Source: Microgenomates group bacterium GW2011_GWC1_46_15
GTDB lineage: Bacteria > Patescibacteriota > Microgenomatia > UBA1400 > UBA12028
DNA: 64,000 nucleotides
Direction: 5' to 3'
Assembly: GCA_001002285.1 (NCBI GenBank)
Contig: LCLX01000002.1
Span: 131,827-195,826, forward strand
Shown: piece by piece, positions 36,060 to 58,417 of the stretch
Position numbering within the stretch: position 1 is the stretch's first letter
How the letters are laid out: each line of letters starts with the position of its first letter
Notes under the pieces: model-generated
The model's database searches: none
What the model saw: only the letters and a program-made list of their open reading frames with translations
What the model was told of the DNA's origin: nothing
Translations under genes and position numbers: made by a program

Positions 36060-36266
36060 ATGTATAATTGGTCAGTACATACACCACGACTCAAAAAAAA
36101 TCCTCGAGCATACAACACATTCGTACTCGAACAACGTATTAATTTTGGTCTCAATGGAAAGAAACTTTCACGTAGTTTGCTCAAGAAGTACTGGAATGAG
36201 CTTGTGATTGATCCGCACAAACGAACATTCCTCGAGAAGATTATATGGACACAACCCTCACTCTAA
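36060..36266 (+). CDS. small ORF overlapping the toxin start; possible remnant or minimal cognate antitoxin (AbiEi position)
   Basis: 68-aa ORF whose stop overlaps the AbiEii ATG by 22 nt; no wHTH recognisable; surrounding 35.9-36.06 kb shows broken frames. Confidence 0.2.
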   Translation: MYNWSVHTPRLKKNPRAYNTFVLEQRINFGLNGKKLSRSLLKKYWNELVIDPHKRTFLEKIIWTQPSL

Positions 36267-36901
36267 GACAAAGAAAAGCGTTGAAATGCATCGCACGAAC
36301 AAATCTGGCAAAACAATTCTACTTTACCGGTGGAACGGCATTGGCGCATGTCTATCTTCACCATCGCAAATCTGAAGATTTAGACTTTTTTAACGAGCAA
36401 GAATTTGATCCTCAACAAGTGACGAGTACACTCAAAACATTTCAGCGCGCACTCGGATTTATTTCGTTTGATTACCAACAGAGTTTTAATCGCAACATCT
36501 ACATGCTTCGATTCGATCAAAGCAAATTCTTGAAACTAGAGTTTACGTTTTTTCCATTTCATCAGATAGAAAAACCATCAGAAAAAGAAGGTTTACTTGT
36601 TGATAGCATCCTTGACATTGCAACGAACAAACTCTTTACTATTGCCCAAAATCCTCGAGGAAGAGATTATTTTGATCTATATTGCATTGTACAAAAGTAT
36701 CACTATACCGTGGAAAGTTTGCGGATGTTTGCTAAACAAAAGTTTGACTGGCATGTTGATCCTCTTCAATTAGGATCGCGATTCCATGAAGTTGCGCAAC
36801 ATCTTGACGACCCGATTCTTGTAACATATGTTGAACATGCTTTGGTTGTGAAATTTTTTCAGGACGAAGCGATGAAGTTTACATCGCAAATTATCGGGTG
36901 A
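36245..36901 (+). CDS. AbiEii/AbiGii-family nucleotidyltransferase toxin (type IV TA / abortive infection)
   Basis: FTGGTALAHVYLHHRKSEDLDFF (motif I) and DSILDIATNKLFTIAQNPRGRDYFDLYCIV (RDxxDL motif) of DUF1814 nucleotidyltransferases. Confidence 0.75.
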   Translation: MDTTLTLRQRKALKCIARTNLAKQFYFTGGTALAHVYLHHRKSEDLDFFNEQEFDPQQVTSTLKTFQRALGFISFDYQQSFNRNIYMLRFDQSKFLKLEFTFFPFHQIEKPSEKEGLLVDSILDIATNKLFTIAQNPRGRDYFDLYCIVQKYHYTVESLRMFAKQKFDWHVDPLQLGSRFHEVAQHLDDPILVTYVEHALVVKFFQDEAMKFTSQIIG

Positions 36902-37138: not shown

Positions 37139-37321
37139 TTATGCCTTTTTCTTTTCATCCTCGTCCAGAAGGGCTTCTTTCAAATCCTTACTGGCTTTTT
37201 TGAGCTCGCGGCCAGACTCTCCAAGGCCACGTGCAAAATCCGGCAACTTCTTCGCTCCAAACAGAAGCAAGAGGATGGCGGCAATAATAAGTATTTCGGG
37301 TGTCCCGATATTTTGAAACAT
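37139..37321 (-). CDS. tatA: twin-arginine translocase subunit TatA/E, copy 2
   Basis: MFQNIGTPEILIIAAILLLLFGAKKLPDFARGLGESGRELKKASKDLK...; AGGAG RBS. Confidence 0.8.
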   Translation of the reverse strand: MFQNIGTPEILIIAAILLLLFGAKKLPDFARGLGESGRELKKASKDLKEALLDEDEKKKA

Positions 37322-37516
37322 ACCACTCCTTTCTTTTCTTTATATGCGTACAGGCAGGGTCGTACTTCATTCATCCTACCCCACACCCTGATGAAAAAAC
37401 AAGGGGCAGGTCATTGTCCGCGCAAAAAAGAGCAAAATCTATACATATACATATTGACAAACTGCCCATATCTTTTTTACTGTAAGAAATACATACTATT
37501 GGATACCACCTCGTTT

Positions 37517-38587
37517 ATGATGAAAACCATTCTTTCTTTTTATAAAAATCTTCTCGTTATGCATGTTCTTATTTTGCTCATCGCTGTTGGCGCGACATTT
37601 GCGTCTTGGAAAATTGTTACTCTAACCATTCACGCGGAAAAACAACGTGTATTTAACCAGGAAAAAGATCAGGCGGCGCAGTGGCTTACGGAAAAGTTTT
37701 CATTATATTATTCTGTGTTAAGAAGTTTTCGGGCGTTTTGGTATAGCAATCCCCACGTTTCACAAAGTCAGTGGGAAAAATTTGTGAAAGATTCGGGAGT
37801 AATCAGTGAGTATCCTGGAATCTCATCGGTGTTTATGATCAAACGAGTACAACAGGAAGGCGCGCGCCCCTTAGAACAAGATATGCGGCGTATTTCCAAT
37901 CCTGCGTATAAAAAATACACTATCCATCCGGTAAAAAAGGATGCAGAGTACTATCTTGGATTCTATATTTATCCCACCGAAGGTCGGGAAACGGCGTTAG
38001 GCCTCGATCACCTCTCTATTCAAGACCGGCAAGAAAAACTTTTTCAGGCACGAGATACCGGAAATATTATGAACACGAGAGAAACACTGCTTTTGAATAC
38101 TGGACGACCAGGATTTTTTCTTGTCGCCCCACTGTACGACAATGCGGTACCACACGACACTGTTGACGGAAGAAGAAAAGCGTTCTGGGGATTTTCCGCC
38201 ATTTCTTTCCGGAGCAACGAGCTTTTTTCTTCTATTTATGGCAACGAAGACCCGTTCCCATTCCTCGACTTTGAGATATACGATGGAACACAAGTAACGC
38301 CGGAAAATTTACTCTATGACCATGACCGATCTCTCTCTGCTGTTACTCTTTCAAATGCATCCAAAATGACATATCAACAGGAACTCAAGCTTGACGACAA
38401 TCGTTGGACGATTGTTTTTGCAACGAAACCAAACTTTACGTTAGGCAAGTTTCAAGAAATTTTGCCGTGGATTGTGCTTGGGATTGGCGGAGTGTTTTCA
38501 GCATTTGTTATGTTTAATCTTATTCAATATGTTTTACAGATGAAAAAAATACGACAAACGAAAGAAAAAGAGGTTCTGAAAAATTAG
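37517..38587 (+). CDS. membrane protein with periplasmic CHASE-like sensor domain (TM-domain-TM, no output domain)
   Basis: N-terminal TM, about 290-aa extracytoplasmic region with ...ETALGLDHLSIQDRQEKLFQARDTGNIMNTRETLLLNTGRPGFFLVAPLY resembling the CHASE consensus, C-terminal TM; start at MMKTIL. Confidence 0.45.
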   Translation: MMKTILSFYKNLLVMHVLILLIAVGATFASWKIVTLTIHAEKQRVFNQEKDQAAQWLTEKFSLYYSVLRSFRAFWYSNPHVSQSQWEKFVKDSGVISEYPGISSVFMIKRVQQEGARPLEQDMRRISNPAYKKYTIHPVKKDAEYYLGFYIYPTEGRETALGLDHLSIQDRQEKLFQARDTGNIMNTRETLLLNTGRPGFFLVAPLYDNAVPHDTVDGRRKAFWGFSAISFRSNELFSSIYGNEDPFPFLDFEIYDGTQVTPENLLYDHDRSLSAVTLSNASKMTYQQELKLDDNRWTIVFATKPNFTLGKFQEILPWIVLGIGGVFSAFVMFNLIQYVLQMKKIRQTKEKEVLKN

Positions 38588-43107: not shown

Positions 43108-43620
43108 ATGCAAATCGTTGATATTAACGGAACAGAACGCACATGTTTAAAGGCGTTCCCTGACCCCGCATACCCTGGATATATGCGCGTTGAGTTCAGA
43201 ACTCACCATGAATGGTTCACGCTCAAAGAGTTTCTTTTTTTTAACCCCACGCTGAAAAACTTAATGGCTGGTGCTCCCAATCTTCCTGCCGATGATCTTG
43301 GAGTCGTTACATCATCCGGAAAAAACTTTATCAGAGATGCAAAGAAAAACTGGAAAGAAAACAGTTATATTGATTTCACGATTTGGATCTCGCGGGGGCT
43401 TGGTGAGGGACAAACACGAAGGGTGATGAGGAATACACGAAACACGGTCTATACCAATACACCTTGGAATACCAAACCAAATAAAACTTCTCAGTATTTA
43501 ATTTCACATGATATTCACGATGTGAAAGCGTTTGGAAATGTTCTTCCACAAATTGAACAGGCCGAATACGAAAGACGCGCTAAAGAAATGGATAAAAAGA
43601 AAGCACCACAAAAAAATTAA
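43108..43620 (+). CDS. hypothetical protein
   Basis: 170-aa ORF with Lys-rich C-terminus; no motif. Confidence 0.4.
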   Translation: MQIVDINGTERTCLKAFPDPAYPGYMRVEFRTHHEWFTLKEFLFFNPTLKNLMAGAPNLPADDLGVVTSSGKNFIRDAKKNWKENSYIDFTIWISRGLGEGQTRRVMRNTRNTVYTNTPWNTKPNKTSQYLISHDIHDVKAFGNVLPQIEQAEYERRAKEMDKKKAPQKN

Positions 43621-43631
43621 AAATATATACT

Positions 43632-44105
43632 ATGAAACTCGCAAAAGAATATCAGTTCCTCGTTATTATCAGCCTCTTTATTTTTGCGTACGTGCTCGAA
43701 GCGCTCGTGAATCCTCTGCAAATCAATCTTATTACTCCATACAGCTACCTTAACCCACAAATTCTTGCGAAGTACCCGTTTACAACCGCAATTATTGCGA
43801 TTAAAAGTATCGCGATCTTTTGGACCCCACTATTTCTTTTTTCTTTTATCCAGAAAGCATACGCCGCAAAGGGAAGCATTTTCCTTGTATTAGCCGGACT
43901 TCTCCAGTTATACTCACTCCAAGAAATCGCAACCGGTGCCCAAATTGTGCCACTGGAGTGGTCACTCGCGCTTTCTGTTGCGGGAATACTCCTTCTTATC
44001 CCAACCAGTCTTTTTTTCCTTCAGCATAGTTTTCATACAATGCGTGCGAAAATCCACTCGCCTACTCCTCCACCCATTGCTTCTCCACAAAAATCCACTC
44101 CTTGA
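43632..44105 (+). CDS. hypothetical membrane protein (about 4 TM)
   Basis: 157 aa, hydrophobic helices, Pro-rich C-terminus. Confidence 0.4.
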   Translation: MKLAKEYQFLVIISLFIFAYVLEALVNPLQINLITPYSYLNPQILAKYPFTTAIIAIKSIAIFWTPLFLFSFIQKAYAAKGSIFLVLAGLLQLYSLQEIATGAQIVPLEWSLALSVAGILLLIPTSLFFLQHSFHTMRAKIHSPTPPPIASPQKSTP

Positions 44106-44136
44106 CGCTGACCCTTCCTCTTACTACTATTGATGT

Positions 44137-44499
44137 ATGCACAAGCAATTTTTCGTGCTGGCTGACTACAGAGAAAAAAGCATACATTGGAAAGCGGGAA
44201 ATATTGTACTCGTGGATCCTGATATTGCAGTTCCATTTATTGGAACGATTCTTACCCCACTGTACTCTGCCATCAAAGCAGGTCTGTATCCACCGGCTCC
44301 GCAAGAGCCGCTTGCCATAAAAATGATGAAAAAGATGAAAGAAAATGTGAAAGAAATTGTTGGTATGCCGCCAGAATCATCAAAAAATCCTCCGCCCTCC
44401 TCACTTGGCTCAATCCTTGCGAAGAAAAAGTTTTTACAAAACGATATCCGAGCAAAAATTCAGGCAAAGAAAGCTGAACGCGCGCAAGGAAAGAGTTAG
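44137..44499 (+). CDS. hypothetical protein
   Basis: 120-aa ORF; Lys-rich C-terminus. Confidence 0.35.
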   Translation: MHKQFFVLADYREKSIHWKAGNIVLVDPDIAVPFIGTILTPLYSAIKAGLYPPAPQEPLAIKMMKKMKENVKEIVGMPPESSKNPPPSSLGSILAKKKFLQNDIRAKIQAKKAERAQGKS

Positions 44500-44573
44500 C
44501 TCTTGTAACTTTGTAGTGTATACATAATACTAAAACTTGATTATTGTGGAAGTAATGGCATAAAGAAACATAT

Positions 44574-47222
44574 ATGGCAATAGCAAATGATTGGCGCATA
44601 GACTATACAAATAAACTCATTGTTCATGCAACGAGTGAGCTTGCGTACCAAACGCAAACCGTAAATTATACTGTTGGTGATCTTATTACCCAAGCAGTTT
44701 CTGGAGCAACAGCGGTTATCGTTGCTGATGTTGATGGTGGTGCTACGGGAACACTCCATATCGCGTACGTTACCGGAACGTTTAACAACACCAATACGAT
44801 TACGGATCAGCATACTGGTTCCGCTGCGCCGAACATCCCAACTGGGCTTGTTACAAAAACCGCAACATATACGACCCGCGCACTGTACTCATACATTCAA
44901 GACACGTTTGACGAGCTTGTTCAGCTTGACGATACCGTTCCAATGTCCGCCCAGACGCCTACTGAGTTTACACTTATTAACGGGTGGTTTATTGACGATA
45001 ACTCGGTCAAGTTCCTATACGGCGGAGCACTTCAAACATCTGGCTATGATGCTGTAATCCAGATGATAGCTTTTGGCGGAACATATACCCCGGCAATTAA
45101 TTCTGATATCGGAAAGATGGTGAACGACGATACTGTTGATAGCGGTAATCTCCTCCATTTCAACAATACAACGAAAAAATGGTGGGTTCGTTGGGGAACC
45201 CAAATCGCTTCCGGTTCAGCTATGACACTAGATGGTTCGGGTACTGGTGCCGGAACAACAAATGTTAACGGAGACATTACTGGTGAAGATTTGTACGCGA
45301 ACGTCTATACCTTGGGAAGCATCGCAACAAATCCAAATCCGCAAACATATATTTTCCAGAACTCCGCCTCCATTACACCGTGGTGGGGTCGTGGAGACGT
45401 AAACGCTGCTATTGACGTCCTCATTAAGGTAAAAGAACTTGGAAGCGAAATTGATGGTGCAAATATTACCGTGTATGTCCGCCATTACGGCGACTTATAC
45501 GACCACTTTGCCATTGATCTTACAAACGGAGGACGCAACGCCGTTCCTCTCTCCTCTGCTACAGACTTGAACAATAATACACTGGGTGAAGCGTATCTTT
45601 TATACGATGGTCAAGGAGCAACAAACTTTACGGCAGGTCTCATCCTCACCAATGCCGGTGGCACCGCAACCGCTGAGATCATCGCTGATACAGATAACGG
45701 TGCGAATGGATATTTAACCTTAGGGAATGTCAAAGGTACTTTTGCAGATGGTGAAATTATTACCGATACTTCCACAGGATCGGCAACAGTCAATGGAAGT
45801 GTTGGCGACACTGTTCTCAACTTTGATACCGAAACCGCGGCATTTGTCGCACTTGATCAAATCGTTACAGGCGGCACTTCTCTTGCACAACGACAACTCA
45901 AAGGTATTCAGGATGATGCGGGAGCAACCGGAAGGCTTGTCTTAAAGGTGAGCGACACCGCCGATGCTGATCACTTTAAAACATTCTCTGACAATGAAAT
46001 TATTACTGGGGCAACAAATGGAAGCGCTTCTGCTAATGGTGCTTCTACTACAGCCGCCGCAGGGTTTGCAAATATCAAAACTTGGTTTGTAAACGTCGAG
46101 GTAGACTTTGCAAGCAAAACGGGATCGGTACCGGCGGGAAGTACGGTGACCGGAGCAACCTCTGGAGCGATAGGAGTGTTTTTAGGGGAAAAAGACGCAA
46201 ACACACTCACCATTGGGAACTGGAACGGAATAAATTTTACTGCAAGTGAACAACTTCGAGTAGATGTGTCAAACTACTACGCGCTTCATGCAACACTCAA
46301 TCAAACATCCGCTTTTACAATGAACAAGGCGTTCACCCAAGGAACAAATAATCCGTACTCTATTATTGTGGACTGTGCAAACCGCTCACTCTCTCAAGTT
46401 TACGAATGGCTTAAGTACATTACACGCGATGGTGCCAACTCAAGCCAAGTTTATCGCCAAATTATGTACCCCGTTATCTCTTCAACCGTTGTCCAACAAG
46501 ATGGCGAAGAATACATCGCAGCCCGCGTTCTCCCTGATACTGCGTTCACACCAGTCAAAGCTTCCCCATTTGGGACCTTTGCTGGAGGTAAACTCTTCGG
46601 TGCCCAAGGTGTTTGGGTGCAAAACATGGTAAGCACCGATGTTCAATCATTCCAGCTTATTGACAGTAACGGAGCTACCCGTACTCCGCCGAACTTCCAA
46701 TCGCTTACCGTCACCGGTGTCATTTCTGGAGATAAGGTTGCAGTATTCCGCACCACAGGAGGTACAACAATTAATAAAGCCGTATTTACACTTGCCGCAG
46801 GAAACAATGCTGGGAATAGCACGATCGTTGTAAATGAAGCAATCCCAACCGATACTCCTTCTCCGACCGGTGTTATTCGGTTAGTTGATACGTCAGACAC
46901 GAGTATTAATCGTGAAACAAAGTACACGTATACGAGTTGGGATGGCGGCACAAAAACATTCTCTGGCGTATCTCCCGTCCTAGATAGAAATTACACATTA
47001 ACGGATGACACAGCCTACGTTCCATACATTGATACCACAGCATCTGGCACGAGCGTTACCGTTTCGGTTATTTACCCAAGTGCTGACCGCACGGTGCTCG
47101 CCCGTGTCCGCCGGTATAACGGTGTAGGTGACTCTATTCTTCCTTTCGAAACAACCGGAACATACAGCTCTACCGGGTACTCTACTGCTGCTATCCGTAC
47201 ATCCGACTCCATCGTTCTATAG
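44574..47222 (+). CDS. giant Thr/Gly/Asn-rich protein with four internal about 65-aa repeats (tail-fibre/adhesin-like), no signal peptide
   Basis: 882 aa; repeats of form G(A/T)TSGATxxV...D..A.GTL.L..V.GTF..(N/G)E.IT (e.g. VSGATAVIVADVDGGATGTLHIAYVTGTF; GGTATAEIIADTDNGANGYLTLGNVKGTF; GATNGSASANGAS; VTGATSGAIGVFLG). Confidence 0.6.
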   Translation: MAIANDWRIDYTNKLIVHATSELAYQTQTVNYTVGDLITQAVSGATAVIVADVDGGATGTLHIAYVTGTFNNTNTITDQHTGSAAPNIPTGLVTKTATYTTRALYSYIQDTFDELVQLDDTVPMSAQTPTEFTLINGWFIDDNSVKFLYGGALQTSGYDAVIQMIAFGGTYTPAINSDIGKMVNDDTVDSGNLLHFNNTTKKWWVRWGTQIASGSAMTLDGSGTGAGTTNVNGDITGEDLYANVYTLGSIATNPNPQTYIFQNSASITPWWGRGDVNAAIDVLIKVKELGSEIDGANITVYVRHYGDLYDHFAIDLTNGGRNAVPLSSATDLNNNTLGEAYLLYDGQGATNFTAGLILTNAGGTATAEIIADTDNGANGYLTLGNVKGTFADGEIITDTSTGSATVNGSVGDTVLNFDTETAAFVALDQIVTGGTSLAQRQLKGIQDDAGATGRLVLKVSDTADADHFKTFSDNEIITGATNGSASANGASTTAAAGFANIKTWFVNVEVDFASKTGSVPAGSTVTGATSGAIGVFLGEKDANTLTIGNWNGINFTASEQLRVDVSNYYALHATLNQTSAFTMNKAFTQGTNNPYSIIVDCANRSLSQVYEWLKYITRDGANSSQVYRQIMYPVISSTVVQQDGEEYIAARVLPDTAFTPVKASPFGTFAGGKLFGAQGVWVQNMVSTDVQSFQLIDSNGATRTPPNFQSLTVTGVISGDKVAVFRTTGGTTINKAVFTLAAGNNAGNSTIVVNEAIPTDTPSPTGVIRLVDTSDTSINRETKYTYTSWDGGTKTFSGVSPVLDRNYTLTDDTAYVPYIDTTASGTSVTVSVIYPSADRTVLARVRRYNGVGDSILPFETTGTYSSTGYSTAAIRTSDSIVL

Positions 47223-47243
47223 TTCTCTTGCTATAATGTCCCC

Positions 47244-47771
47244 ATGGCATACGTTTTCAACTTTTACACACAGATTATTGACATAACAAATCCGCAGACA
47301 ACCGTGGTGATTCAAGACTTGATTAACGAGATCCGCACCCAGGAATCTTCGGCTACCGGTATGGCATATCCAAAAATCGCCGATGCAGGAGGAAAGGATA
47401 ATCTTGGAGGCGGAGTGAGTACAGGCATAACCATCACACTCTACCCAGACTGGCAGCTCCGTTTTTGGGCAGGAAGCTACATTGCCGATATCACCGGCGG
47501 CAACCTTGTGGGAGGTTTGGGTGGCAATCCATTTGCATATGTTGCGGGCGTACAAATCAAAGTTATTCAGTCTGCCGCTTCAACTATTGTTACCAGTGGC
47601 GGTTCTGCACTCACAACAGCAGAACACGATAAACTCATGTCCGGTCTCGATGCCACCATTCCCCCAGCCGTGTGGGAAGAGCTTCTTGCAAGCCACCAGA
47701 CGGCGGGAACAATGGGCAAAGCGCTCAAAGATATCAAAACAAAAGCAACGCTTGGCGCGATTAGTAAATAG
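47244..47771 (+). CDS. Gly-rich hypothetical protein (tail-fibre-like small partner)
   Basis: 175 aa, NLGGGVSTGITITLY...GGNLVGGLGGNPFAYVAGV; no signal peptide. Confidence 0.5.
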   Translation: MAYVFNFYTQIIDITNPQTTVVIQDLINEIRTQESSATGMAYPKIADAGGKDNLGGGVSTGITITLYPDWQLRFWAGSYIADITGGNLVGGLGGNPFAYVAGVQIKVIQSAASTIVTSGGSALTTAEHDKLMSGLDATIPPAVWEELLASHQTAGTMGKALKDIKTKATLGAISK

Positions 47772-47863: not shown

Positions 47864-48034
47864 ATGTTCCAAAATATCGGCACAACGGAAGTTGCCATTG
47901 TCGCGGTGCTTCTTTTGCTCTTGTTCGGAGGAAAAAAACTTCCAGAGCTTGGCAAAGGATTGGGTGAGGCAGCGCGTGAAATCCGCAAAGCGTTTACCGA
48001 GGACGATGCGTCTGAGAAGAAAAAGAAGTCATAA
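47864..48034 (+). CDS. tatA: twin-arginine translocase subunit TatA/E, copy 3 (56 aa; not in ORF track)
   Basis: MFQNIGTTEVAIVAVLLLLLFGGKKLPELGKGLGEAAREIRKAF...; AAGGAGG RBS. Confidence 0.8.
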   Translation: MFQNIGTTEVAIVAVLLLLLFGGKKLPELGKGLGEAAREIRKAFTEDDASEKKKKS

Positions 48035-48048: not shown

Positions 48049-48189
48049 ATGTTTGCAAATATTGGCTTGAGAGAAATTCTCGTTTTGGTGTTGATCGCCG
48101 TGCTCCTGTTCAAAGGAGGAGAGTTGCTCCCAAGACTCATTCGCGGACTGGGTGATGCGGTACGCGAGTTCCGTAAATCATCCCGGTAA
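48049..48189 (+). CDS. tatA: twin-arginine translocase subunit TatA/E-like, copy 4 (46 aa, divergent)
   Basis: MFANIGLREILVLVLIAVLLFKGGELLPRLIRGLGDAVREFRKSSR. Confidence 0.65.
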   Translation: MFANIGLREILVLVLIAVLLFKGGELLPRLIRGLGDAVREFRKSSR

Positions 48190-48233: not shown

Positions 48234-50873
48234 ATGCAACATACTGCCGTAGCTATTAGGCGTTGGGTGATTGCTTTCGTTTGCAGTGTTTTGTTGTTCT
48301 CTCTTCTCTTTTTCTCCTCATCTCCAGTTCGCGCTATTAGTGCGGAGTATCAACAATGCCCCGTCAATACCAGTTGTACCGTTGGCGAGTTCTTATATGC
48401 CGATGACTACTCGCCCATTGCCGGTGCCACATGCACATACACCGCGCGCAAACCCGATGGAACGTTGTTTTTAAACGCCGTTGCCATGTCCGAAAGTTCG
48501 GATGGATGGTACGCATATAGCGTGAACGCCACAGGCGCGGTTTCTGGTCTCTACCGCGGAACCATCTGTTGTACTCCACCCGCCGACGCCCAAGTGTGTT
48601 TGGAAAAAAGTTTTGTTGTTGGCCCAGCGGACATGACCGCTACGGATGTCGCAAACGCGGTGTGGGATGCAACGCGCAGTTCACATACGACAACCGGTAG
48701 TTTTGGTGAAAATCTCCAGAACGCTACATCAATTACCGCCGCCGATGTTTGGAATTACTCGAGTAGAACGCTTTCTGGATTTGGCACACTGGCGAGCGAT
48801 GTGTGGGCAAACTCCACCCGCACGCTTTCTGGATTTGGTGATTTGGTATCGAGTATAACATCAAGCATTTGGGGAAATTCTTCAAGAACACTCACCAGCG
48901 GAACACTGAGCAATAGCGAATCGCTCGTAACTTCCTCGAGCACCACACAAAACATTACCGTTACCTACAACACCATTTCGCAACAACTCACCGAAACGCG
49001 GAGTTTGCTTGAGCGAGTCATTAATCAGCCCACTATTCAGTCATTTATTGATGATAAACCAACCGAAAGTCTTGAGTCTAAACTGCAAAAAACCGAGTCT
49101 ATGCTCCTTCAGGTGCAAGAACAGTCTACGCGAGCAATGAACACTATTGACCTCCTTGGTTTAACATGGTCAAGCGTCCAGCCAGATCAACTCACCCAAA
49201 AACTGTCCGATACTACAAAACTTTTAGGAACAAATCCTGATGATCCACACCCAGAAACGATGCTTGACAATGCACACATCCTCGCGTCACTCTGGAATAG
49301 CCTTGTCTTATCAAGCCTTTCGGATCAAACACAAGCAGCGCTGGTTTCTGCAAAGTCTGCGGAACAACAAGCGAAAAGCTCCGGAAAATCGTCTGCTACG
49401 CGCCAATCCCTTCAGGAAACATCAAAATTCCTCACTACGTTGACGCAACTCCTCGGTACCCCCGAAGATGCGTATACAAAACCAACTGCGTTTGGGTATC
49501 TTCATGATCTTCAACGAAAAGCACAGGCGTTACACGAGCAGGAACAGTCCGCACAAAACCTTCTTTCGGACTGGAAATCTATTGACACAAAAAACAGAAG
49601 CCAGTTGCTTGCCACACTATCCAAAGAAGTGTTTGCGATTAATGCCATTCCGCAAGGAATAGTGCTAACAACTCCCGCAAAGGTAGCACATAGTCCAGAA
49701 ATCAGCCAAAAGAACCAGGCGCTCGGCCTACAAGCGCTCATTTCCGCAAACAAACAGCTTCTCGCGCAAAATGCCAACGATCCGCTTAACTCGTACTGGC
49801 TTGAAGAAGGAAGTGTTATTTTCCGTTTCCTCCTCACCAATCCATCTTCAACCATTCGGCAAGATGTTCCCGTGAAATACTATCTCCCTCCAGAAGTGAT
49901 GAAGGAACACATTCTTACTATTGATACAGGGTTGACTATTGAGTATGACGCGGAAAAAAATACGTATTTTGCTTCTGGAACGTACTCCCTTGCCTCCCAG
50001 GAAACAAAAACAATCTCCATAGAAGTTGAGGATATCTGGGTTATTCAGGATTCGGATCTTCAAGCCATCAAAAAACAGGCCGAGGACCTGCTCAAACCAC
50101 TCCAAAAGACTTCGTACTATGCGCAAGGGGCTCTTTTGAAGTCCGATATTGATGTGGCAGTAGATAAAATCTCCGCAAATCAAAGCAAAGACCGCACACC
50201 AGACGCCCGTATCCGCGCATATCGGGAAAATGAAATCGAGCTGGTTGGTATTAAACAAAACATGAGCGCGCTTAAAAACATTGTTGCATCCGCAAGTTCA
50301 ACGGGCTCCATTTTTGGATTTGTGGGGAGTGTACAGGTTGTTGCTGTATGGGGCATTATCATCGTTCTCCTGGCGGGACTCACATATCTTGCGCTGTACA
50401 TGAAAGCTCTCCGGACAAAAATTGATATGCCAGAAAACTTAGAAAGTGCTTTACAGGGTGCCAATATTCCAACAAAAAGATACTATGAAAAACCCATTCC
50501 TGGCTGGAAGAAGGGCGTGTTTGTTCTTTTGTTTTTCCTTCTTACAGGAACAATTACTTCGGCTGTTTCTTCAGCATTCCTTGTGCAGTCAGACCAACAG
50601 AGTACAAAACAAATCGCTAGCACGACACGGGAAGAAAAACTGACGGTGCTTGGTGCGACAACAAAGGTACAACGTGCTACGTTACAAGGAAAAGTTCAAC
50701 CCGTTCCTATCTATACTTCTCCATCCTCCGAAAGCGAGATGTTGCATAGAATACCGGAAGATATTATCGTACAGATCAAAGGAAAGAAGTTTAATTGGAT
50801 ACAAATTCAATACACTTGGGGCGCGGGTGTATACATTGGCTGGGTACAAGATAACACGTTGAAAAAAGAGTAA
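48234..50873 (+). CDS. large secreted/membrane-anchored protein with RR-containing signal peptide, WxNxSxRTLSGFG repeats, coiled coils, 2 TM and C-terminal SH3b domain
   Basis: MQHTAVAIRRWVIAFVCSVLLFSLLFFSSSPVRA|ISAE signal; three about 19-aa repeats (VWNYSSRTLSGFG / VWANSTRTLSGFG / IWGNSSRTLTSG); TM helices near aa 690-760; C-terminal KFNWIQIQYTWGAGVYIGWVQ (SH3b-like). Confidence 0.6.
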   Translation: MQHTAVAIRRWVIAFVCSVLLFSLLFFSSSPVRAISAEYQQCPVNTSCTVGEFLYADDYSPIAGATCTYTARKPDGTLFLNAVAMSESSDGWYAYSVNATGAVSGLYRGTICCTPPADAQVCLEKSFVVGPADMTATDVANAVWDATRSSHTTTGSFGENLQNATSITAADVWNYSSRTLSGFGTLASDVWANSTRTLSGFGDLVSSITSSIWGNSSRTLTSGTLSNSESLVTSSSTTQNITVTYNTISQQLTETRSLLERVINQPTIQSFIDDKPTESLESKLQKTESMLLQVQEQSTRAMNTIDLLGLTWSSVQPDQLTQKLSDTTKLLGTNPDDPHPETMLDNAHILASLWNSLVLSSLSDQTQAALVSAKSAEQQAKSSGKSSATRQSLQETSKFLTTLTQLLGTPEDAYTKPTAFGYLHDLQRKAQALHEQEQSAQNLLSDWKSIDTKNRSQLLATLSKEVFAINAIPQGIVLTTPAKVAHSPEISQKNQALGLQALISANKQLLAQNANDPLNSYWLEEGSVIFRFLLTNPSSTIRQDVPVKYYLPPEVMKEHILTIDTGLTIEYDAEKNTYFASGTYSLASQETKTISIEVEDIWVIQDSDLQAIKKQAEDLLKPLQKTSYYAQGALLKSDIDVAVDKISANQSKDRTPDARIRAYRENEIELVGIKQNMSALKNIVASASSTGSIFGFVGSVQVVAVWGIIIVLLAGLTYLALYMKALRTKIDMPENLESALQGANIPTKRYYEKPIPGWKKGVFVLLFFLLTGTITSAVSSAFLVQSDQQSTKQIASTTREEKLTVLGATTKVQRATLQGKVQPVPIYTSPSSESEMLHRIPEDIIVQIKGKKFNWIQIQYTWGAGVYIGWVQDNTLKKE

Positions 50874-50881: not shown

Positions 50882-51316
50882 CTACTGCCAAACTCCCTGC
50901 CCTGCAACAACATTAAACAAGAAATGTATAAGCATTGCTCCTACTAGTCCCACAAACACCCACTTTCCTTTATTTGCGATACCAAGCCCCACCGCACCCA
51001 TTGTTACCGCGTGCATGGGTACTGTAAGGAATAGCCTGAAGAGGAGGGGCTCAAGCGATCCAAATTGAATGGCGCTCGGTAAAAAAAGCAGACTCTCAGA
51101 TAGGCCAAAAACTGCTCCAAAAAGGAGGGGGCGGTATGCCTTTCCCTCTGTATTTGTCCATCCAATTACCCGTAGCATGCCATACTTTGCAAACTCTTCA
51201 ACAAACCAAGGAACTGGAATGATGAACTCAAAAGGTACTGCAAATACAGGCAACATGACGGCAAACAGCGTTTGGGAGATAACTTGAGGAATGTTTGGTG
51301 TACGCCGGGCTGGCAT
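50882..51316 (-). CDS. CPBP-family intramembrane glutamic endopeptidase (CAAX protease/Abi-like)
   Basis: VEEFAKYGMLR (EExxxR), FGAVFGLSESLLF, MLIHFLFNVVAG (HxxxN) motifs; start at MPARR (the longer ORF may add 40 aa). Confidence 0.55.
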   Translation of the reverse strand: MPARRTPNIPQVISQTLFAVMLPVFAVPFEFIIPVPWFVEEFAKYGMLRVIGWTNTEGKAYRPLLFGAVFGLSESLLFLPSAIQFGSLEPLLFRLFLTVPMHAVTMGAVGLGIANKGKWVFVGLVGAMLIHFLFNVVAGQGVWQ

Positions 51317-51547
51317 ATATACAGTATACCCAATAACACAACTCTTTTCCTTTACACTCAACTCGTGCAAATATGCTCTCCGCAACTCTTTGGTTTTCTT
51401 TCGTCTATTTTTAACCTGAGTATGTATTGTGCTCAATTTTGGCCTCTTTTTGGTGATTTTTACTACCTTGCCGCGTGAAAACTTATACTCTTTGGTGTTC
51501 TCTCTTTAAACGAGATATCATACATATAAAACCCGTAGAAACTGTTT

Positions 51548-51728
51548 TTACAACTCTTTGCAACTTCTTACAATGCCCGGCCTTCTCCCCAAATCGCGGA
51601 AAATTTTTGCGTTTGATATATTTTTCCTTTTTTCCACACAACCGCCTATTTCCAGAGAAATATGTATTGACAACGGTTGTTTTTTTAGAGTAGTCTGAAG
51701 TTGTACAAAGTTGTAAGAATTTGTAAAG
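51548..51728 (+). promoter_or_regulatory. two sets of triple direct repeats at 10-bp phasing upstream of the HTH gene (putative operator/promoter)
   Basis: TTACAAC-tct-TTGCAAC-ttc-TTACAAT (51548-51575) and TTGTACAAAG-TTGTAAGAAT-TTGTAAAG (51701-51728), with TTGACA at about 51668 between them. Confidence 0.35.
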
Positions 51729-51736
51729 CATCAGAT

Positions 51737-52285
51737 ATGAATGAAATGTATACCGTCAAACAAGTTGCCGACATTCTTGGATTTTCCACGAACACAGTCT
51801 ACAAATATCTCAATGCTGGGATCATTCATACTTCACGCCCAGGACAGATGAAAAGTCGGTTTCGCATTTCAAAAAAGGCTTTGGAAGACTACCTTGGTGT
51901 TCCAATAGATGAATATAAGAGTGAAAAGCACGCGCGCGTTGAGCCTCTTTTTTCACAAGAGCACAGTTCTTCACAATCTCCGATAGAAACAGTGATCGTT
52001 GATGCAAACGCCCAAAAAATGGGCATTCCTGAGCCTCCTCTCGAGGTAAAGTCTGCTCATGAAGCTGGTACAGAAGACCATGAGGAGCACAATATTGCCC
52101 CATCTTTTGCTCTACGCACCACACGCGCTCTTCTTTTTATTACTTTAATTGGCGTCACATTAAACCTCGCTTTTTTTAGCCTTCCACATCCCATTACGCT
52201 TTTGTCGCAACTCCTGATTCTTTTTGTATTCTTGCTCTTGGCATACCAATATGGCGGAATGCACAAGAAAAAGGCAGTGGTATGA
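51737..52285 (+). CDS. membrane-anchored helix-turn-helix (excisionase/MerR-like HTH_17) DNA-binding protein
   Basis: MNEMYTVKQVADILGFSTNTVYKYLNAGII HTH; C-terminal TM helix LLFITLIGVTLNLAFF...; ATG preferred over the upstream TTG. Confidence 0.5.
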   Translation: MNEMYTVKQVADILGFSTNTVYKYLNAGIIHTSRPGQMKSRFRISKKALEDYLGVPIDEYKSEKHARVEPLFSQEHSSSQSPIETVIVDANAQKMGIPEPPLEVKSAHEAGTEDHEEHNIAPSFALRTTRALLFITLIGVTLNLAFFSLPHPITLLSQLLILFVFLLLAYQYGGMHKKKAVV

Positions 52286-52965
52286 AAAAAATTTCACCAG
52301 TTCTCCAGCGTTTTTTCCACCAATGGCAAATATTTTCCCCCGAGAAACAGTTTTCTCTTCTTTCCTCTGTTCTGGGGACATGCGTCGTGGTGATATCTGT
52401 TCTCTCTGTAGGTGTGTTGGCTCAACAGTATAAAATTCACCGCCTCACTACTCAACACATTGCGCTTCTCGAGAAACTCGGCGTTGTATCAACAACAATG
52501 GACGGTATTGCGCGCGATGGAAAATCCGCGATGGTCGCGCAGGAACTCCGCGCACTCCGCGACGAGGTTATTAAGTACCGCGCGGAACAGCAAGGAAGAG
52601 ATCAAATACTTGGCCTTTCTACCGGTCTTAATCTGCCGACACTCACCGATCCTCTTCAATCGCTCTCGAACACGCTCTCGACGCTTGAGGAAGCAACGAT
52701 TGAACCAACACTTACAATACCTCCTACGCAAACGACAAACCAACAAAATACTGGTGCGCACTTGGGAACTGTTTCTCTTCTCGAGGGAAAATCGTGGACA
52801 TCGGTTGACGCATTTGACCAAGCGCTTGCGTCTTCAAAAATTGTTGGCCAACTCGTTGTCCGCGTTTCTTACCCCTACTATGCAAAAGAGAACGGGTGGT
52901 ACCAAGTTGAACTCTCAAATGGGAAAAGAGGGTGGGTTCAAGAACAATTTGTGAAGGAGGACTAG
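52282..52965 (+). CDS. single-pass membrane protein with C-terminal SH3b-like domain
   Basis: TM helix SVLGTCVVVISVLSVGVLA; C-terminus VSYPYYAKENGWYQVELSNGKRGWVQ; ATGA overlap with the upstream gene. Confidence 0.5.
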   Translation: MKKISPVLQRFFHQWQIFSPEKQFSLLSSVLGTCVVVISVLSVGVLAQQYKIHRLTTQHIALLEKLGVVSTTMDGIARDGKSAMVAQELRALRDEVIKYRAEQQGRDQILGLSTGLNLPTLTDPLQSLSNTLSTLEEATIEPTLTIPPTQTTNQQNTGAHLGTVSLLEGKSWTSVDAFDQALASSKIVGQLVVRVSYPYYAKENGWYQVELSNGKRGWVQEQFVKED

Positions 52966-53378
52966 TGCGCCTGTACTCGCTTGCCCGCGCGATCGACCGC
53001 CTTTTTGTGTACTATGCGGTGATTTTTCTCGCCTTTTTTGTGTTTTTGTCATTCAGATCTGGGGTTTCTCCAACACAGTTCCTCATTTTTGTTCTTTTAC
53101 TCCCCGTTATATTTTATTTTTCGCACGCGTTTTGGAAGTACATTTATGGCATTGCTTCCAAAAAGCGTGGAGGGTGGGCGTTTTCATGGAAACACTTTTT
53201 TCTTCAAGACAGCGCACTATTTCTCTTAAGTATTTCTTTGTTTTCTATCGCGGTCAGCATCGCGTTTGTCCGCGTTACAGGTTCGTTTTTCCATACCCTC
53301 CAGGTTGAAGCCATTCAAACACCACAAACAACATCGGCCAAAACATCATTGCAACCGCCAGCAGAGGAAACGCCATGA
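52932..53378 (+). CDS. hypothetical membrane protein (GTG start; alternative GTG at 52966)
   Basis: 148 aa, 3-4 TM helices; overlaps neighbours on both sides. Confidence 0.35.
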   Translation: MGSRTICEGGLVRLYSLARAIDRLFVYYAVIFLAFFVFLSFRSGVSPTQFLIFVLLLPVIFYFSHAFWKYIYGIASKKRGGWAFSWKHFFLQDSALFLLSISLFSIAVSIAFVRVTGSFFHTLQVEAIQTPQTTSAKTSLQPPAEETP

Positions 53379-54058
53379 CAGGAATGGTTCTTCAGCTCTA
53401 TAGCTTTGTTGTCCTCACGAGTTTAGGCGTATGGATGCTAGAAAAAGCTCAATCTGGCGGAGATGTTTTTCTTGCATCGCTCTTTTTTCCGTTATCAATA
53501 TATCTGGCATTGCGGGTGTTTCACCGCATTGGCGGCGCGTTTGTTTCCCAGCCAAGCCATATCCCACGCGCGAATCCACATCATGAAACACAATTCCACC
53601 CTGCTGAGGGAAATAGCACGCAAACAATACCCACAGAACTCATTCAAGAACTTGAGCCCGACAAGGTTCCCATTGATATTGACCGCCGATTATTCTTAAA
53701 AATGATTGGCTCCGCGGGACTTGGTCTTTTTTTCGTGTCGATTTTCACAGAAAAAACACACGCCGCATTTTTTGGCAGCCTTCCTGGTACTTCTGGTATT
53801 CAGGTTAAAAATAAGCTTGGAGAAAAGATTGACCCCGCAGAAAAATACCCCACAGACGGATACACGATTACTGAAATTGACGATGCGACCTACCCCGCAT
53901 ACTACGGCTTTTTGCATACTTCCGGCGGATGGTACATCACTAAAGAAGCAAGCGACGGATCGTATCGGTATGCAAAGGGAGCATCTGCGTTTTCAACAAG
54001 TTGGGCTCTCCGTAATACAACCGTCACATATGGATATTACGACGCGGTGTTCTCGTAG
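53375..54058 (+). CDS. protein with internal twin-arginine (Tat) signal-like segment; N-terminal 2 TM, C-terminal about 110-aa beta-rich domain
   Basis: aa 100-135: PIDIDRRLFLKMIGSAGLGLFFVSIFTEKTHAAFF = S/T-RRxFLK consensus + h-region + AxA-like site, but located 100 aa into the ORF; immediately upstream of tatC. Confidence 0.5.
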   Translation: MTGMVLQLYSFVVLTSLGVWMLEKAQSGGDVFLASLFFPLSIYLALRVFHRIGGAFVSQPSHIPRANPHHETQFHPAEGNSTQTIPTELIQELEPDKVPIDIDRRLFLKMIGSAGLGLFFVSIFTEKTHAAFFGSLPGTSGIQVKNKLGEKIDPAEKYPTDGYTITEIDDATYPAYYGFLHTSGGWYITKEASDGSYRYAKGASAFSTSWALRNTTVTYGYYDAVFS

Positions 54059-54073
54059 TGTTTGAAGGAATAT

Positions 54074-54805
54074 ATGGCAGAAGAACACTCTCCCGAACAA
54101 ACCGCAGACCTCCTCCGACAAAACATGGTGAAGTATCTCCCCTATCTGCGAGAAGCACAAAAAAGAATGTGGATTACGATTGGTATTTTTATTATTGGTG
54201 GAACGCTCGGATTTTTTGGAAACCAACAGATTTTGGGTTTTGTGATGAAGCGGTTAAACCTCGTTGGGATTAACCTTGTGTTTACCTCTCCAACACAGTT
54301 TATTGATTTGGCATTTCAAACCGGCTTCATTATAGGAGCTCTTCTCGCAATCCCCTATCTTATCTACTGTGTTTTGAGTTTTGTTCTTCCCGCCCTGCGA
54401 AAAAAAGAACGCAGTATTATTCTTTCCCTTCTCCCTCTGAGCCTTGCGCTCACCGTGATCGGATTTGCGTTCGGCGTGTGGATTCAGCAGTTTGTGATCA
54501 CTATTTATTCCCAGACAACAACGAGTTTTAATATCAGCAATATGTGGGATGTTGGCCGTTTTTTCTCTCAGTTTGTGCTCATGGGACTTTCCATGGCACT
54601 TGTTTTCCAGCTTCCTATTGTGTTATCCATTCTCCTCCGCCTTGGGGTCATAAAACGGTCAGTATTGACATCGCGGAGAAGAATTGTGTATGCCGCCATC
54701 ATTATTTTTGCGACGATTCTACCGCCAACCGATATTCTTTCACTTACGCTTATCGTCCTTCCCCTTGTGTTTTTGTTTGAAGGAGCGCTACTATTGAATA
54801 AGTAG
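54074..54805 (+). CDS. tatC: twin-arginine translocase subunit TatC
   Basis: Six-TM TatC architecture, ...LREAQKRMWITIGIFIIGGTLGFF... and FQLPIVLSILLRLGVI; ATG at 54074 preferred over TTG at 54062. Confidence 0.85.
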   Translation: MAEEHSPEQTADLLRQNMVKYLPYLREAQKRMWITIGIFIIGGTLGFFGNQQILGFVMKRLNLVGINLVFTSPTQFIDLAFQTGFIIGALLAIPYLIYCVLSFVLPALRKKERSIILSLLPLSLALTVIGFAFGVWIQQFVITIYSQTTTSFNISNMWDVGRFFSQFVLMGLSMALVFQLPIVLSILLRLGVIKRSVLTSRRRIVYAAIIIFATILPPTDILSLTLIVLPLVFLFEGALLLNK

Positions 54806-54821
54806 TAAAGAAAGGAGCGAC

Positions 54822-54968
54822 ATGTTTCAAAATATTGGGACACCCGAGATTGTTATTGTTGCTCTCGTCCTCCTAGTCCTGTTCGGCGGAAAGAAAATCC
54901 CCGAGTTGGTCCGTGGGATTGGCGAGTCTATCCGCGAGTTCCGCAAAGGACTCAAGGACGAAAAGTAG
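54822..54968 (+). CDS. tatA: twin-arginine translocase subunit TatA/E, copy 5 (48 aa; not in ORF track)
   Basis: MFQNIGTPEIVIVALVLLVLFGGKKIPELVRGIGESIREFRKGLKDEK; AAGGAG RBS; 16 nt after tatC. Confidence 0.8.
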   Translation: MFQNIGTPEIVIVALVLLVLFGGKKIPELVRGIGESIREFRKGLKDEK

Positions 54969-56886: not shown

Positions 56887-56917
56887 TAAACGTCGTTATT
56901 TGTATAGTATGCGTTTG

Positions 56918-56991
56918 CGGGGCTGCCAGGGCTCGAACCTGGAAACTAACGCTTTTGGAGAGCGCTGTGCTACCAATTACACCACAGCCCC
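56918..56991 (-). tRNA. tRNA-Trp (anticodon CCA)
   Basis: Cloverleaf GGGGCTG...CAGCCCC acceptor, D-arm GTGT/AATTGGTA/GCAC, anticodon loop CTCCAAA, T-arm CCAGG-TTCGAGC-CCTGG. Confidence 0.85.
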
Positions 56992-57049
56992 AAGACATCT
57001 AGTATTCTATCGTGTTTTTCTTCAAAATCCAATCTGCTACACTACACGC

Positions 57050-58417
57050 ATGCCCAACACACTTCTCGACTCCCAACTTGACACACTTCTCGCGCAAGAC
57101 AGGCGATTCATTGAGTCCACCGAGTTCCCCATCGTCACTGTTTCTTCATCGTTCCGCGAAGATCTTAAACAGTTTTACGGCATGGAACATGACCCAAATA
57201 TGCGTGATGTTGTGTTTTCCCGCGCGCATTTTTCGATGGCATTTGCCATGGCAGTTGAAGCATGGCTTCCACAAAAAGACCGCCAGCATCTCGAAAAGTA
57301 CATCGCTCCTCAACCAAACGCAAAACGGGCGTGGTTCATTGATCCAACAAACTACGTGCAGTCCAAAGACTGGTCAAAAATCCAAACAATTGAGTACATT
57401 GGGCGAAAACTTGCGCGGAATAGTTTTTTGAAATGGGTAAAAGACCGTATTGATACATTCGCCCGCAACCGCCTTCCCATTACAACCGCTATCACCCCTC
57501 CCCTTCTCCATCTTTTTCAACACGTTCACCGACCGATTATTTCTCTCCATTACGAGGTTGGAAATATTTTGGCAGGCGTTGGTAAACACGTAGTGCAAGT
57601 TGTAACAGATCCGCACGTGCGCGACCAATACCTCGATCATGCCGATCTGCCAAACATCAAGTTTTGTGTATTTGATGAGAAAACCAAGAGTGATTTTTTG
57701 GAGAAAGCCGCGCTTTTTGGCAAACACGTTGATGAAAAACGTGTGATTGTGACGGGACCGCCAGTCTGTCCACGTGTTGTCGGAGCACGGAAGAAAAAAT
57801 CGATCCATGACCTCCGCCGCAGACCTTTGCGCATCTGTATCACCACCGGCGGTTTGGGAACAAATAAGGAAGAAGTGCGAAAAATCCTTTCAGAATTGCT
57901 TGATCTTGTTCGCAAGCGTCCGGAACCCATTCACATTCTCTGTTACGCTGGCACACAACACGACTTCACACTCATGATTCAAGACATTGCGAAAAAAGAA
58001 CACATTACCATTGAACCGCTTGAGAACGAAAACGCAAAGTTCCGCCTCATTCACGGCAAACACATTGTGGAACTCAATGAACAACTCATTCAGTACGCGT
58101 TTCCTTGGGCCGATGTATTTATCACGAAACCGTCCGGCGACATGGCGTATGACGCTGCTGCGGCCGGGTGTTCCCTCCTCTTTTTAACACCGTGGGGAGA
58201 GTGGGAAAAGAACATTCAAGAGGTATTTGAACAGCAAGGTGTTGGGAGAAAAGCAGAAATCGAGCATATCAAAACACAGGTCAACGTATTAAGCGTGCGC
58301 GCACTCCACAACAACGAGTCGTGGTTTGAACACGCAAAAGAAAAAGCGCTAAACTTGCCAGCGCTGTTTTTGCATGGTTCAGAAAACATTTTGAACATCG
58401 CAAAAGAGTGGAAATAG
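57050..58417 (+). CDS. MGDG-synthase/UgtP-like glycosyltransferase (GT28 family)
   Basis: ATG downstream of the tRNA (the longer TTG ORF overlaps tRNA-Trp); ICITTGGLGTN and FITKPSGDMAYDAAAAGCSLLFL resemble the GT28 C-terminal domain. Confidence 0.5.
   Translation: MPNTLLDSQLDTLLAQDRRFIESTEFPIVTVSSSFREDLKQFYGMEHDPNMRDVVFSRAHFSMAFAMAVEAWLPQKDRQHLEKYIAPQPNAKRAWFIDPTNYVQSKDWSKIQTIEYIGRKLARNSFLKWVKDRIDTFARNRLPITTAITPPLLHLFQHVHRPIISLHYEVGNILAGVGKHVVQVVTDPHVRDQYLDHADLPNIKFCVFDEKTKSDFLEKAALFGKHVDEKRVIVTGPPVCPRVVGARKKKSIHDLRRRPLRICITTGGLGTNKEEVRKILSELLDLVRKRPEPIHILCYAGTQHDFTLMIQDIAKKEHITIEPLENENAKFRLIHGKHIVELNEQLIQYAFPWADVFITKPSGDMAYDAAAAGCSLLFLTPWGEWEKNIQEVFEQQGVGRKAEIEHIKTQVNVLSVRALHNNESWFEHAKEKALNLPALFLHGSENILNIAKEWK

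Follow-up and report, generated by a model that had tools for sequence, protein, structure and literature searches.

A Microgenomatia membrane protein family with an internal twin-arginine segment as a candidate cargo of the Tat translocase

Layout and extent of the target gene family

We analysed a 64,000-nt stretch of the genome of Microgenomates group bacterium GW2011_GWC1_46_15 (assembly GCA_001002285.1, contig LCLX01000002.1, positions 131,827 to 195,826 of the forward strand; hereafter the window, with coordinates counted from its first letter), and describe here a gene that lies directly upstream of tatC and tatA, which encode components of the machinery for twin-arginine translocation (Tat). 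The product of this target gene carries two predicted transmembrane (TM) helices, a linker, an internal twin-arginine (RR) motif at the start of a third hydrophobic segment, and a small C-terminal domain. Its features are as follows:

53375..54058, + strand: target gene, ATG open reading frame (ORF) of 227 aa, encoding a hairpin, a linker, a putative internal twin-arginine signal, and a small beta domain
53384..53521, + strand: N-terminal two-helix hairpin, with TM1 at about aa 4-22 and TM2 at about aa 31-49; family motif YYNF...LFFPLxxYF
53543..53674, + strand: linker, aa 57-100, variable, disordered, and presumably cytoplasmic; predicted local distance difference test (pLDDT) score 48-57; poorly aligned and of varying length
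53681..53701, + strand: twin-arginine motif D-R-R-L-F-L-K, aa 103-109, defined by column counts over 115 homologs
53702..53749, + strand: h-region or third TM helix, MIGSAGLGLFFVSIFT, aa 110-125, 16 aa, Gly/Ser-rich and moderately hydrophobic
53750..53788, + strand: c-region E-K-T-H-A with a predicted cut between THA and A, then the invariant A-F-F-G-S-x-P-G; family form K-K-A-x-A, a signal-peptidase-I-type -3/-1 site
53852..54055, + strand: C-terminal domain, aa 160-227, predicted four-strand beta meander with two short helices; pLDDT 95-98 in the AlphaFold2 (AF2) model

The initial annotation, made from the sequence, had reported this ORF and a near-consensus RR peptide behind two predicted TM helices, and had remarked that no canonical start codon occurs within 15 codons before the RR and that the nearest Met lies at 53702. 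All of these observations were borne out. The peptide PIDIDRRLFLKMIGSAGLGLFFVSIFTEKTHAAFF corresponds to aa 98-132 of the target, the DRRLFLK motif is confirmed, and R104 and R105 are encoded at nt 53684..53689. The 15 preceding codons (ctc att caa gaa ctt gag ccc gac aag gtt ccc att gat att gac) include no in-frame ATG, GTG, or TTG, and the first Met downstream of the RR is M110 at nt 53702. A Kyte-Doolittle scan shows three hydrophobic segments, at about aa 4-22, 31-49, and 106-124, two of them ahead of the RR. The AF2 model, built on a 115-sequence alignment, predicts helices at aa 2-24, 28-56, and 102-124 (with pLDDT of 90-95 for the hairpin helices), disorder at aa 57-100, and a confident domain at aa 160-227. 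The ATG of the target gene overlaps the stop codon of the upstream ORF (ATGA), and a Shine-Dalgarno-like AGAGGA lies 6 nt upstream. No Pfam (E ≤ 0.1), NCBIfam, or PHROG family was found for the window target protein.

Homologs were gathered by a word-index search, an exhaustive hidden Markov model (HMM) search of 1.84 billion cluster representatives, and a scan of one genome per species. The word-index search returned 447 homologs, nearly all of 200-240 aa with about 98% query cover; the HMM search returned 2087 cluster representatives at E ≤ 1e-3 and 191 at E ≤ 1e-30; and the species scan returned 78 loci. Every locus with an informative name belongs to Microgenomatia (Pace-, Woese-, Davies-, Roizman-, Collier-, Ames-, Levy-, Gottesman-, Beckwith-, and Shapirobacteria). 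Carriers of the family include the complete chromosomes CP066686.1, CP011210.1, and CP066693.1. The alignments show the same unbroken layout throughout, namely a hairpin, a variable linker, the RR with the third helix, and a conserved C-terminal part, and both the 447 homologs and the 2087 cluster representatives have it. Separately, many third-party records of metagenome-assembled genomes that carry the Microgenomatia gene cluster are labelled 'uncultured Gammaproteobacteria' or 'Pseudomonadales' (L002, L004, L005, L011, L012, and others), and these labels appear to be placeholders or mislabels.

The missing canonical start near the RR had raised the possibilities that the real protein begins at a non-canonical codon such as ATT just before the RR, or that an undetected frameshift has fused an upstream membrane-protein gene to a Tat substrate; a few short database entries with an N-terminal RR (P0145, P0231, and P0268) also point in this direction. 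We compared the target with its 87%-identical relative L087 by the Nei-Gojobori method (dS of about 0.35-1.05). The ratio of nonsynonymous to synonymous substitution rates (dN/dS) is 0.076 for the hairpin (56 residues), 0.215 for the linker, 0.125 for the RR/helix segment, and 0.054 for the C-terminal part. Among the 115 homologs, Pro39 is invariant and Y9 and A25 are conserved in the hairpin, which together with the low dN/dS shows that the hairpin is translated in the annotated frame. Because selection on the hairpin is as strong as on the rest of the protein, and because the same uninterrupted frame recurs in hundreds of independent assemblies, both the non-canonical start and the frameshift fusion are refuted, and an annotation artefact of either kind retains next to no probability.

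The short entries do not supply a canonical form of the signal. P0231 (L079 547..996) was called from an internal Met with TGA read as Trp, the wrong genetic code and start for a contig of the candidate phyla radiation (CPR), and its ORF continues upstream, where it was seen directly to run through two hairpins before the RR. P0145 comes from a 725-nt contig at 0.7x coverage and has unrelated in-frame sequence upstream. Database short forms with an N-terminal RR are therefore unreliable, and calls of the P0231 type create spurious ones. Variants with two or three family-profile stretches N-terminal to the RR keep the RR after the extra repeats. P0215 has N-terminal helix-turn-helix (HTH) domains, two TM helices, and then a K-R motif, representing an HTH fused to a family member; because these HTH domains are cytoplasmic, the fusion supports a topology with the N-terminus inside. 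The part before the RR is translated in frame and under purifying selection, and the target gene encodes a genuine three-helix membrane protein, full-length as annotated, from a family specific to Microgenomatia. For annotation, this means that target-family genes are correctly called at full length.

The internal twin-arginine segment and its ties to Tat genes

Tat signals combine an S-R-R-x-F-L-K consensus, an h-region, a basic 'Sec-avoidance' c-region, and a signal-peptidase site (PMC7317946). We counted the residues in each column of the RR segment over the 115 homologs, and scored hydropathy, Lys/Arg residues, and loop length over 113 sequences. The counts, in target numbering, are:

Position 101: D in 114/115
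Position 102: variable
Position 103: D in 82, N in 33
Position 104: R in 98, K in 17
Position 105: R in 115/115
Position 106: variable (M/L/A/V/I/T)
Position 107: F in 114/115
Position 108: L in 105, I in 9
Position 109: K in 110, R in 5

Position 109 is followed in the family by L-I-G-S-A-G-x-S-x-F-x-x-S-x-F-T, K/R-K/R, and A/T/S-x-A/G, then by A at the far side of the predicted cut and F-F-G-S-x-P-G. The cut-site columns hold A (100), T (10), or S (5) at -3, A (96) or G (19) at -1, and A (113) or S (2) at +1, so that the -3/-1 rule is obeyed in 115/115 homologs; F132, F133, G134, S135, P137, and G138 are invariant. One or two Lys/Arg residues stand between the third helix and FFGS in 113/113 sequences. 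The column pattern reproduces the Tat consensus with its free x position included, and F, L, and K each reach at least 91%.

Compared with canonical N-terminal Tat signals, the target and its family share the paired arginines of the S/T-R-R-x-F-L-K consensus with the following x-F-L-K, a Gly-rich h-region of at least 12 uncharged residues (16 residues, Gly/Ser-rich, in the target), a basic c-region, and an AxA site. They differ in having D or N before the RR, not S or T, and in position: the RR stands at residues 104-105 behind two TM helices, so the signal (residues 101-131) is tethered to these helices and is not N-terminal. TIGR01409 (TAT_signal_seq) matches 51 of the 115 members, with a best E of 2.1e-4, and it is the sole NCBIfam family that matches more than three members. 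When the pattern [RK]R.F[LIVM][KRQSTNG] followed by an uncharged stretch was searched in 1013 ORFs from the 78 related loci and this region, 77 of the 79 matches belonged to the target family. The RR motif of the target family is more than chance. A comparison of orthologs, proposed in the initial annotation with a poorly conserved RR segment as the outcome that would speak against a Tat signal, gave the contrary result: the layout is the same at full length, and conservation among the 115 homologs peaks in the RR segment.

Neighbouring paralogs provide an internal reference for the third helix. In them, the N-terminal hairpin of the target family recurs together with an RR-less third TM helix and an extracytoplasmic SH3b domain, as in the gene pair upstream of the target in L012. 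On crude, position-independent 17-residue Hessa sums, the RR-preceded third helix has a median of +2.05 (range 1.0-3.4) and that of 32 RR-less paralogs a median of -1.5, which makes the third helix of the RR-less SH3b paralogs about 3.5 Hessa units more hydrophobic. It has been shown experimentally that low hydrophobicity together with C-terminal positive charges hands a helix from Sec to Tat, and that recognition of a tethered signal takes a loop of about 8 residues at minimum (PMC5449189). The loop from the end of TM2 to the RR measures 15-84 aa (median 47) in the 113 homologs and about 55 aa in the window, and it exceeds this minimum in the target and in all scored homologs.

The hairpin itself (FFYS/YYNF...LLLP/LFFPLxxYF) is a reusable module, found in the target, in the protein encoded at 52932..53378, and in SH3b proteins (L012 4712..5347 and 5385..5969, L006, and L003), and it is duplicated or triplicated in some target-family members. 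A hairpin-specific HMM detects the duplicated copies only partially, and counting TM helices at a fixed threshold misses some of the proline-containing TM2 helices. The hairpin may mediate assembly of the proteins that bear it into one membrane complex. Its reuse with Sec-type domains in the same genomes provides a natural matched pair for the choice between Sec and Tat.

The C-terminal part that follows the predicted cut site is about 95 aa long. A model of the domain alone reproduces the fold, with pLDDT of 82-91 over the folded part, and Foldseek gave no significant PDB neighbour for either the full-length or the domain-only model. When PDB sequences were searched with a profile of the stretch 53765..54055, the only match was MITSUBA-1, a designed MytiLec-type beta-trefoil (5xg5), with a whole-sequence E of 0.003 that arises from two weak repeat matches. 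These matches hint that the domain is a single trefoil-like four-strand unit, which would need oligomerisation. The invariant columns of the C-terminal part are aromatic residues, Gly, Pro, and Asp, with no conserved Cys or His among them, and no cofactor site is recognisable; the conserved Asp residues could bind a metal ion. The segment AFFGSxPGPG...IDP...PTDGY (aa 131-163) is highly conserved yet modelled at low confidence, which fits a segment that is ordered only with a partner. With low confidence, we suggest that the exported domain, along with the SH3b paralogs of its operon, has a binding or structural function at the cell envelope.

The Tat genes of the window are as follows:

54074..54805, + strand: tatC, 243 aa; Pfam TatC 9.7e-39 over 54062..54805; TTG at 54062 is the start given by the ORF lister
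54822..54968, + strand: tatA, 48 aa; Pfam TatA_B_E 2.2e-15
47864..48034, + strand: second tatA paralog, 56 aa; Pfam TatA_B_E 1.7e-14
48049..48189, + strand: third tatA paralog, 46 aa; Pfam TatA_B_E 1.2e-7

The gene calls of tatC orthologs have 243 aa, which makes ATG 54074, 15 nt past the target stop, the most likely start of tatC. The second and third tatA paralogs, 6 kb upstream of tatC, had been missed by the initial annotation. The window thus encodes one TatC and three TatA, and its relatives have three or four tatA (L084 and L086); three tatA paralogs are a sizeable commitment in a genome of about 1 Mb. In the species scan, tatC or tatA lies within 6 kb of the target-family gene in 13 of the 78 loci, in at least seven arrangements: directly downstream on either strand, after cluster 1, after cluster 13, directly upstream of the HTH gene, about 5 kb upstream, and others (the clusters are blastp clusters of neighbouring genes, described below). 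Against a chance expectation of 1-5%, the binomial p is 3e-11 to 1e-4, a test weakened by the loci not being phylogenetically independent. A search for TatC homologs (at least 17 scored matches) showed that the direct adjacency of target and tatC, seen in the window, L086, and L087, is conserved in the Pacebacteria clade only, and that GCA_001803415.1 carries the family gene and tatC with three tatA on different contigs. A Tat translocase is therefore present in the same genome as the family in both the window and GCA_001803415.1. The link between the target family and Tat genes is real but loose. The substrate-translocase pair that had been proposed from the position of the gene is supported in part: the adjacency stands within the Pacebacteria clade, and across the family tat genes lie within 6 kb in those 13 loci, at variable positions, with none within 10 kb on three long contigs (L081-L083).

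Alternatively, the target might serve the Tat translocase as an accessory or regulator and not as a cargo, being a tethered signal-peptide mimic that occupies or organises the TatC receptor site. Such a role would suit a gene that in the Pacebacteria clade shares an operon with tatC and lies directly 5' of it, a signal-like segment that is the best-conserved part of the protein, and the three or four tatA paralogs of these small genomes, which suggest an elaborated Tat system. However, the gene mostly travels with the HTH, SH3b, cluster-1, and cluster-4 genes and not with tat, the C-terminal domain matches the signal in conservation and in strength of selection, and this domain follows a signal-peptidase-type site, as expected of a passenger. 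We consider an accessory role highly unlikely.

Several results weigh against Tat-dependent export of the target. TM2 scores as weakly as TM3 on the crude Hessa sums. TIGR01409 and Pfam TAT_signal (PF10518) both stay below the reporting threshold with the window target protein. Conservation of the h-region goes far beyond that seen in ordinary signal peptides, canonical Tat signals included, and this could reflect a functional TM helix whose Tat likeness is partly incidental. The divergent subfamilies L063, L067, and L075 keep K-R and lose the AxA site, so cleavage cannot be universal. The passenger has no recognisable cofactor site, and the usual reason for using Tat is thus missing. In addition, 65 of the 78 loci have no tat gene within 6 kb, the three long contigs have none within 10 kb, and unlinked co-occurrence of the family with tat genes could be checked in one genome only (GCA_001803415.1).

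The third helix might accordingly be an ordinary anchor inserted by Sec/YidC, with RR-x-F-L-K serving as a positive-inside juxtamembrane element that contacts lipid, the hairpin, or a partner, and with the Tat likeness and the tat neighbours being coincidental. The sister hairpin proteins export SH3b domains through an RR-less third TM helix, so Sec does handle this layout, and the small beta domain without sign of a cofactor, the unusual conservation of the h-region, the many loci without nearby tat genes, and the lack of a direct Tat-signal HMM match in the window protein would all fit such an anchor. It accounts poorly for conservation that follows the Tat consensus position by position, leaving the x position free and keeping the second Arg throughout, for a helix far less hydrophobic than that of the RR-less paralogs and always followed by Lys/Arg and AxA across the alignment, for TIGR01409 as the sole family matching more than three of the members, and for the strong enrichment of tat genes nearby in many arrangements. 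We regard an ordinary Sec anchor as rather unlikely, and as the most serious competitor of Tat-dependent export.

Neighbouring genes and the conserved cluster

The target gene stands within a run of genes from 51701 to 55655 that overlap or abut one another and encode, in order, an HTH_17 protein with two TM helices, a TM-anchored SH3b protein, a 148-aa hairpin protein, the target, TatC, TatA, and a RibD_C protein. The features upstream of the target are:

51547..51574, + strand: promoter-like site ahead of the HTH gene, TTTACA-16-TACAAT, 10/12 matches; a consensus match only
51701..52285, + strand: HTH_17 protein that ends in two TM helices and opens the apparent operon; Pfam HTH_17 1.6e-11
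52282..52965, + strand: TM-anchored SH3b protein; Pfam SH3_3 6.8e-7
52932..53378, + strand: upstream polytopic membrane protein, 148 aa, with a paralogous hairpin copy; hairpin HMM E=1.1e-4 over aa 23-68
43108..47771, + strand: partner genes encoding 170-aa soluble, 157-aa 4-TM, 882-aa, and 175-aa proteins, assigned to blastp clusters 4, 1, 2, and 13

By tblastn, the HTH gene is upstream of the target in 24 of the 78 loci and the SH3b gene in 39, and an equivalent of the 52932..53378 gene (cluster 6) is directly upstream of the target in many loci. Cluster 1 (4-TM, about 155 aa) occurs in 58 of the 78 loci and is directly downstream of the target in most of those, and cluster 4 (soluble, about 175 aa) occurs in 23 of the 78, along with large unannotated proteins. 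The partner block is upstream of the target in the window and downstream of it in L004, L013, and most other loci, so the gene order is permuted. No Pfam or PHROG match was found for the partner genes at 43108..47771, and the 882-aa and 175-aa partner proteins have no signal peptides.

The large Thr/Ser/Gly-rich, signal-less proteins and the excisionase-type HTH prompted us to consider a prophage origin for the cluster. Ten cluster proteins gave no PHROG match, and no relative was found in 2.9 million viral contigs. Because the flanks hold housekeeping and envelope genes (those for arginyl-tRNA synthetase (ArgRS), TopA, MreB, PBP2, and Ddl) and viral relatives are lacking, we rejected this origin and regard the cluster as chromosomal and lineage-specific.

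Other genes of the window show features of their own. An 879-aa Cys-rich surface protein (48234..50873, + strand), encoded 3' of two tatA, has a repeated VWxxSxRTLSGFG motif, a C-terminal TM helix, and an SH3-like domain. It was considered as a second Tat cargo on account of the RR in its signal peptide (AIRRWVIAF), which is not supported: the h-region is strongly hydrophobic and Sec-like, and the RR is absent from the L084 ortholog. A protein with a weak match to PrsW-type intramembrane proteases (50882..51436, - strand; E 4.8e-4) is encoded next to the membrane-tethered HTH_17 protein (51701..52285, + strand), a pairing reminiscent of signalling by regulated proteolysis. In other genomes, a CHASE sensor (37313..38587 in the window) and response regulators recur in this neighbourhood. 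Just upstream of the conserved cluster lies a gene for an AbiEii-type nucleotidyltransferase toxin (36245..36901, + strand; Pfam 5e-21). Further away, a 545-aa protein (19656..21293, - strand) unusually combines MtrA-like, thymidylate-synthase-like, and pterin-binding DUF4346 segments, and the longest-ORF 5' end of a 505-aa protein without a Pfam match (56900..58417, + strand) overlaps tRNA-Trp (56917..56991, - strand), so its start is probably further downstream.

Proposed export route and comparison with known systems

From the sequence evidence, we infer that the target is probably inserted jointly by Sec and Tat; this is the reading that we favour on balance, and the topology, cleavage, and function of the exported domain given here are likewise predictions. 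The hairpin would be inserted co-translationally by Sec/YidC with the N-terminus inside, so that the linker (15-84 aa) and the D-x-D/N-R-R-x-F-L-K motif remain cytoplasmic. Sec would not translocate the third segment, which is Gly/Ser-rich, weakly hydrophobic, and followed by one or two Lys/Arg residues, and the C-terminal domain of about 95 aa would fold in the cytoplasm. TatC would then recognise the internal RR, and TatA/TatC would move the folded domain across the membrane and integrate the third helix. Signal peptidase I would probably cut at A-x-A before the next A, which would free the domain with an AFFGSxPG N-terminus; otherwise the domain would stay anchored. Of the three explanations that had been put forward for the misplaced RR, an internally placed Tat signal is thus the one that the evidence favours, and it is less unusual than the initial annotation had supposed, since membrane-tethered internal Tat signals are an established class (PMC3471235 and PMC5449189).

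A much bolder version, to which we give only slight credence, would make the family the principal and possibly dedicated cargo of Microgenomatia TatA/TatC and the first cofactor-less dual Sec/Tat protein; the passenger would depend on Tat because a single beta-trefoil-like subdomain has to fold or oligomerise (e.g., as a trimer) in the cytoplasm ahead of export, and AxA cleavage from a polytopic 'pro-anchor' would expose the invariant AFFGSxPG N-terminus for assembly into an envelope structure with the SH3b paralogs.

Earlier work noted Tat genes in CPR classes, Microgenomatia among them (PMC9166423), and no proposed cargo for the Microgenomatia Tat system was found in the searchable literature. 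The target family is the first concrete, widespread, and testable candidate cargo for the CPR Tat system, and it bears on the question of why organisms with hardly any redox metabolism and genomes of about 1 Mb retain a translocase that moves folded proteins. If the Tat dependence is true, the handover from Sec to Tat, so far confined to cofactor proteins, extends to a cofactor-less passenger and to a modular hairpin anchor that is reused with Sec-type domains.

In Bacillus subtilis, the phoD-tatAd-tatCd genes place a substrate gene beside a dedicated minimal TatA/TatC translocase. The window resembles this arrangement in having a TatAC-type system without tatB, with the target directly upstream of tatC in the same direction and separated by a 15-nt gap. 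In contrast to phoD, the adjacency is found only in Pacebacteria, and elsewhere the tat genes lie around the larger cluster or on another contig.

The closest known parallel in mechanism is the class of dual Sec/Tat-targeted proteins, which includes the actinobacterial three-TM Rieske protein Sco2149 (Keller et al., 2012; PMC3471235), the five-TM molybdenum cofactor (MoCo) protein Sco3746, a five-TM polyferredoxin, and four-TM YkuE-like phosphoesterases (Tooke et al., 2017; PMC5449189). This class is defined by an even number of TM helices before a conserved RR and a single TM helix right after it (PMC5449189). The target has this arrangement, with the RR or KR kept among its homologs, and it shares the three-TM layout of Sco2149. 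It further resembles the class in its weakly hydrophobic helix with C-terminal positive charges, in a loop above the minimum of about 8 aa, and in a globular C-terminal domain apparently destined for the outside. In contrast, the target has no sequence homology to the Rieske, Sco3746-type MoCo, polyferredoxin, or YkuE-type families, and it is restricted to CPR Microgenomatia. The described families all carry iron-sulfur, MoCo, haem, or metal centres, whereas the passenger of the target, about 70-95 aa long, is a beta domain with no recognisable cofactor site; an AxA site is conserved in the target family, whereas the known families remain anchored; and the target hairpin is a reusable module that occurs in one to three copies and is common to the RR-less SH3b paralogs. 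By analogy, the target would work like the dual Sec/Tat class, as a new and apparently cofactor-less variant that belongs to none of the families described so far.

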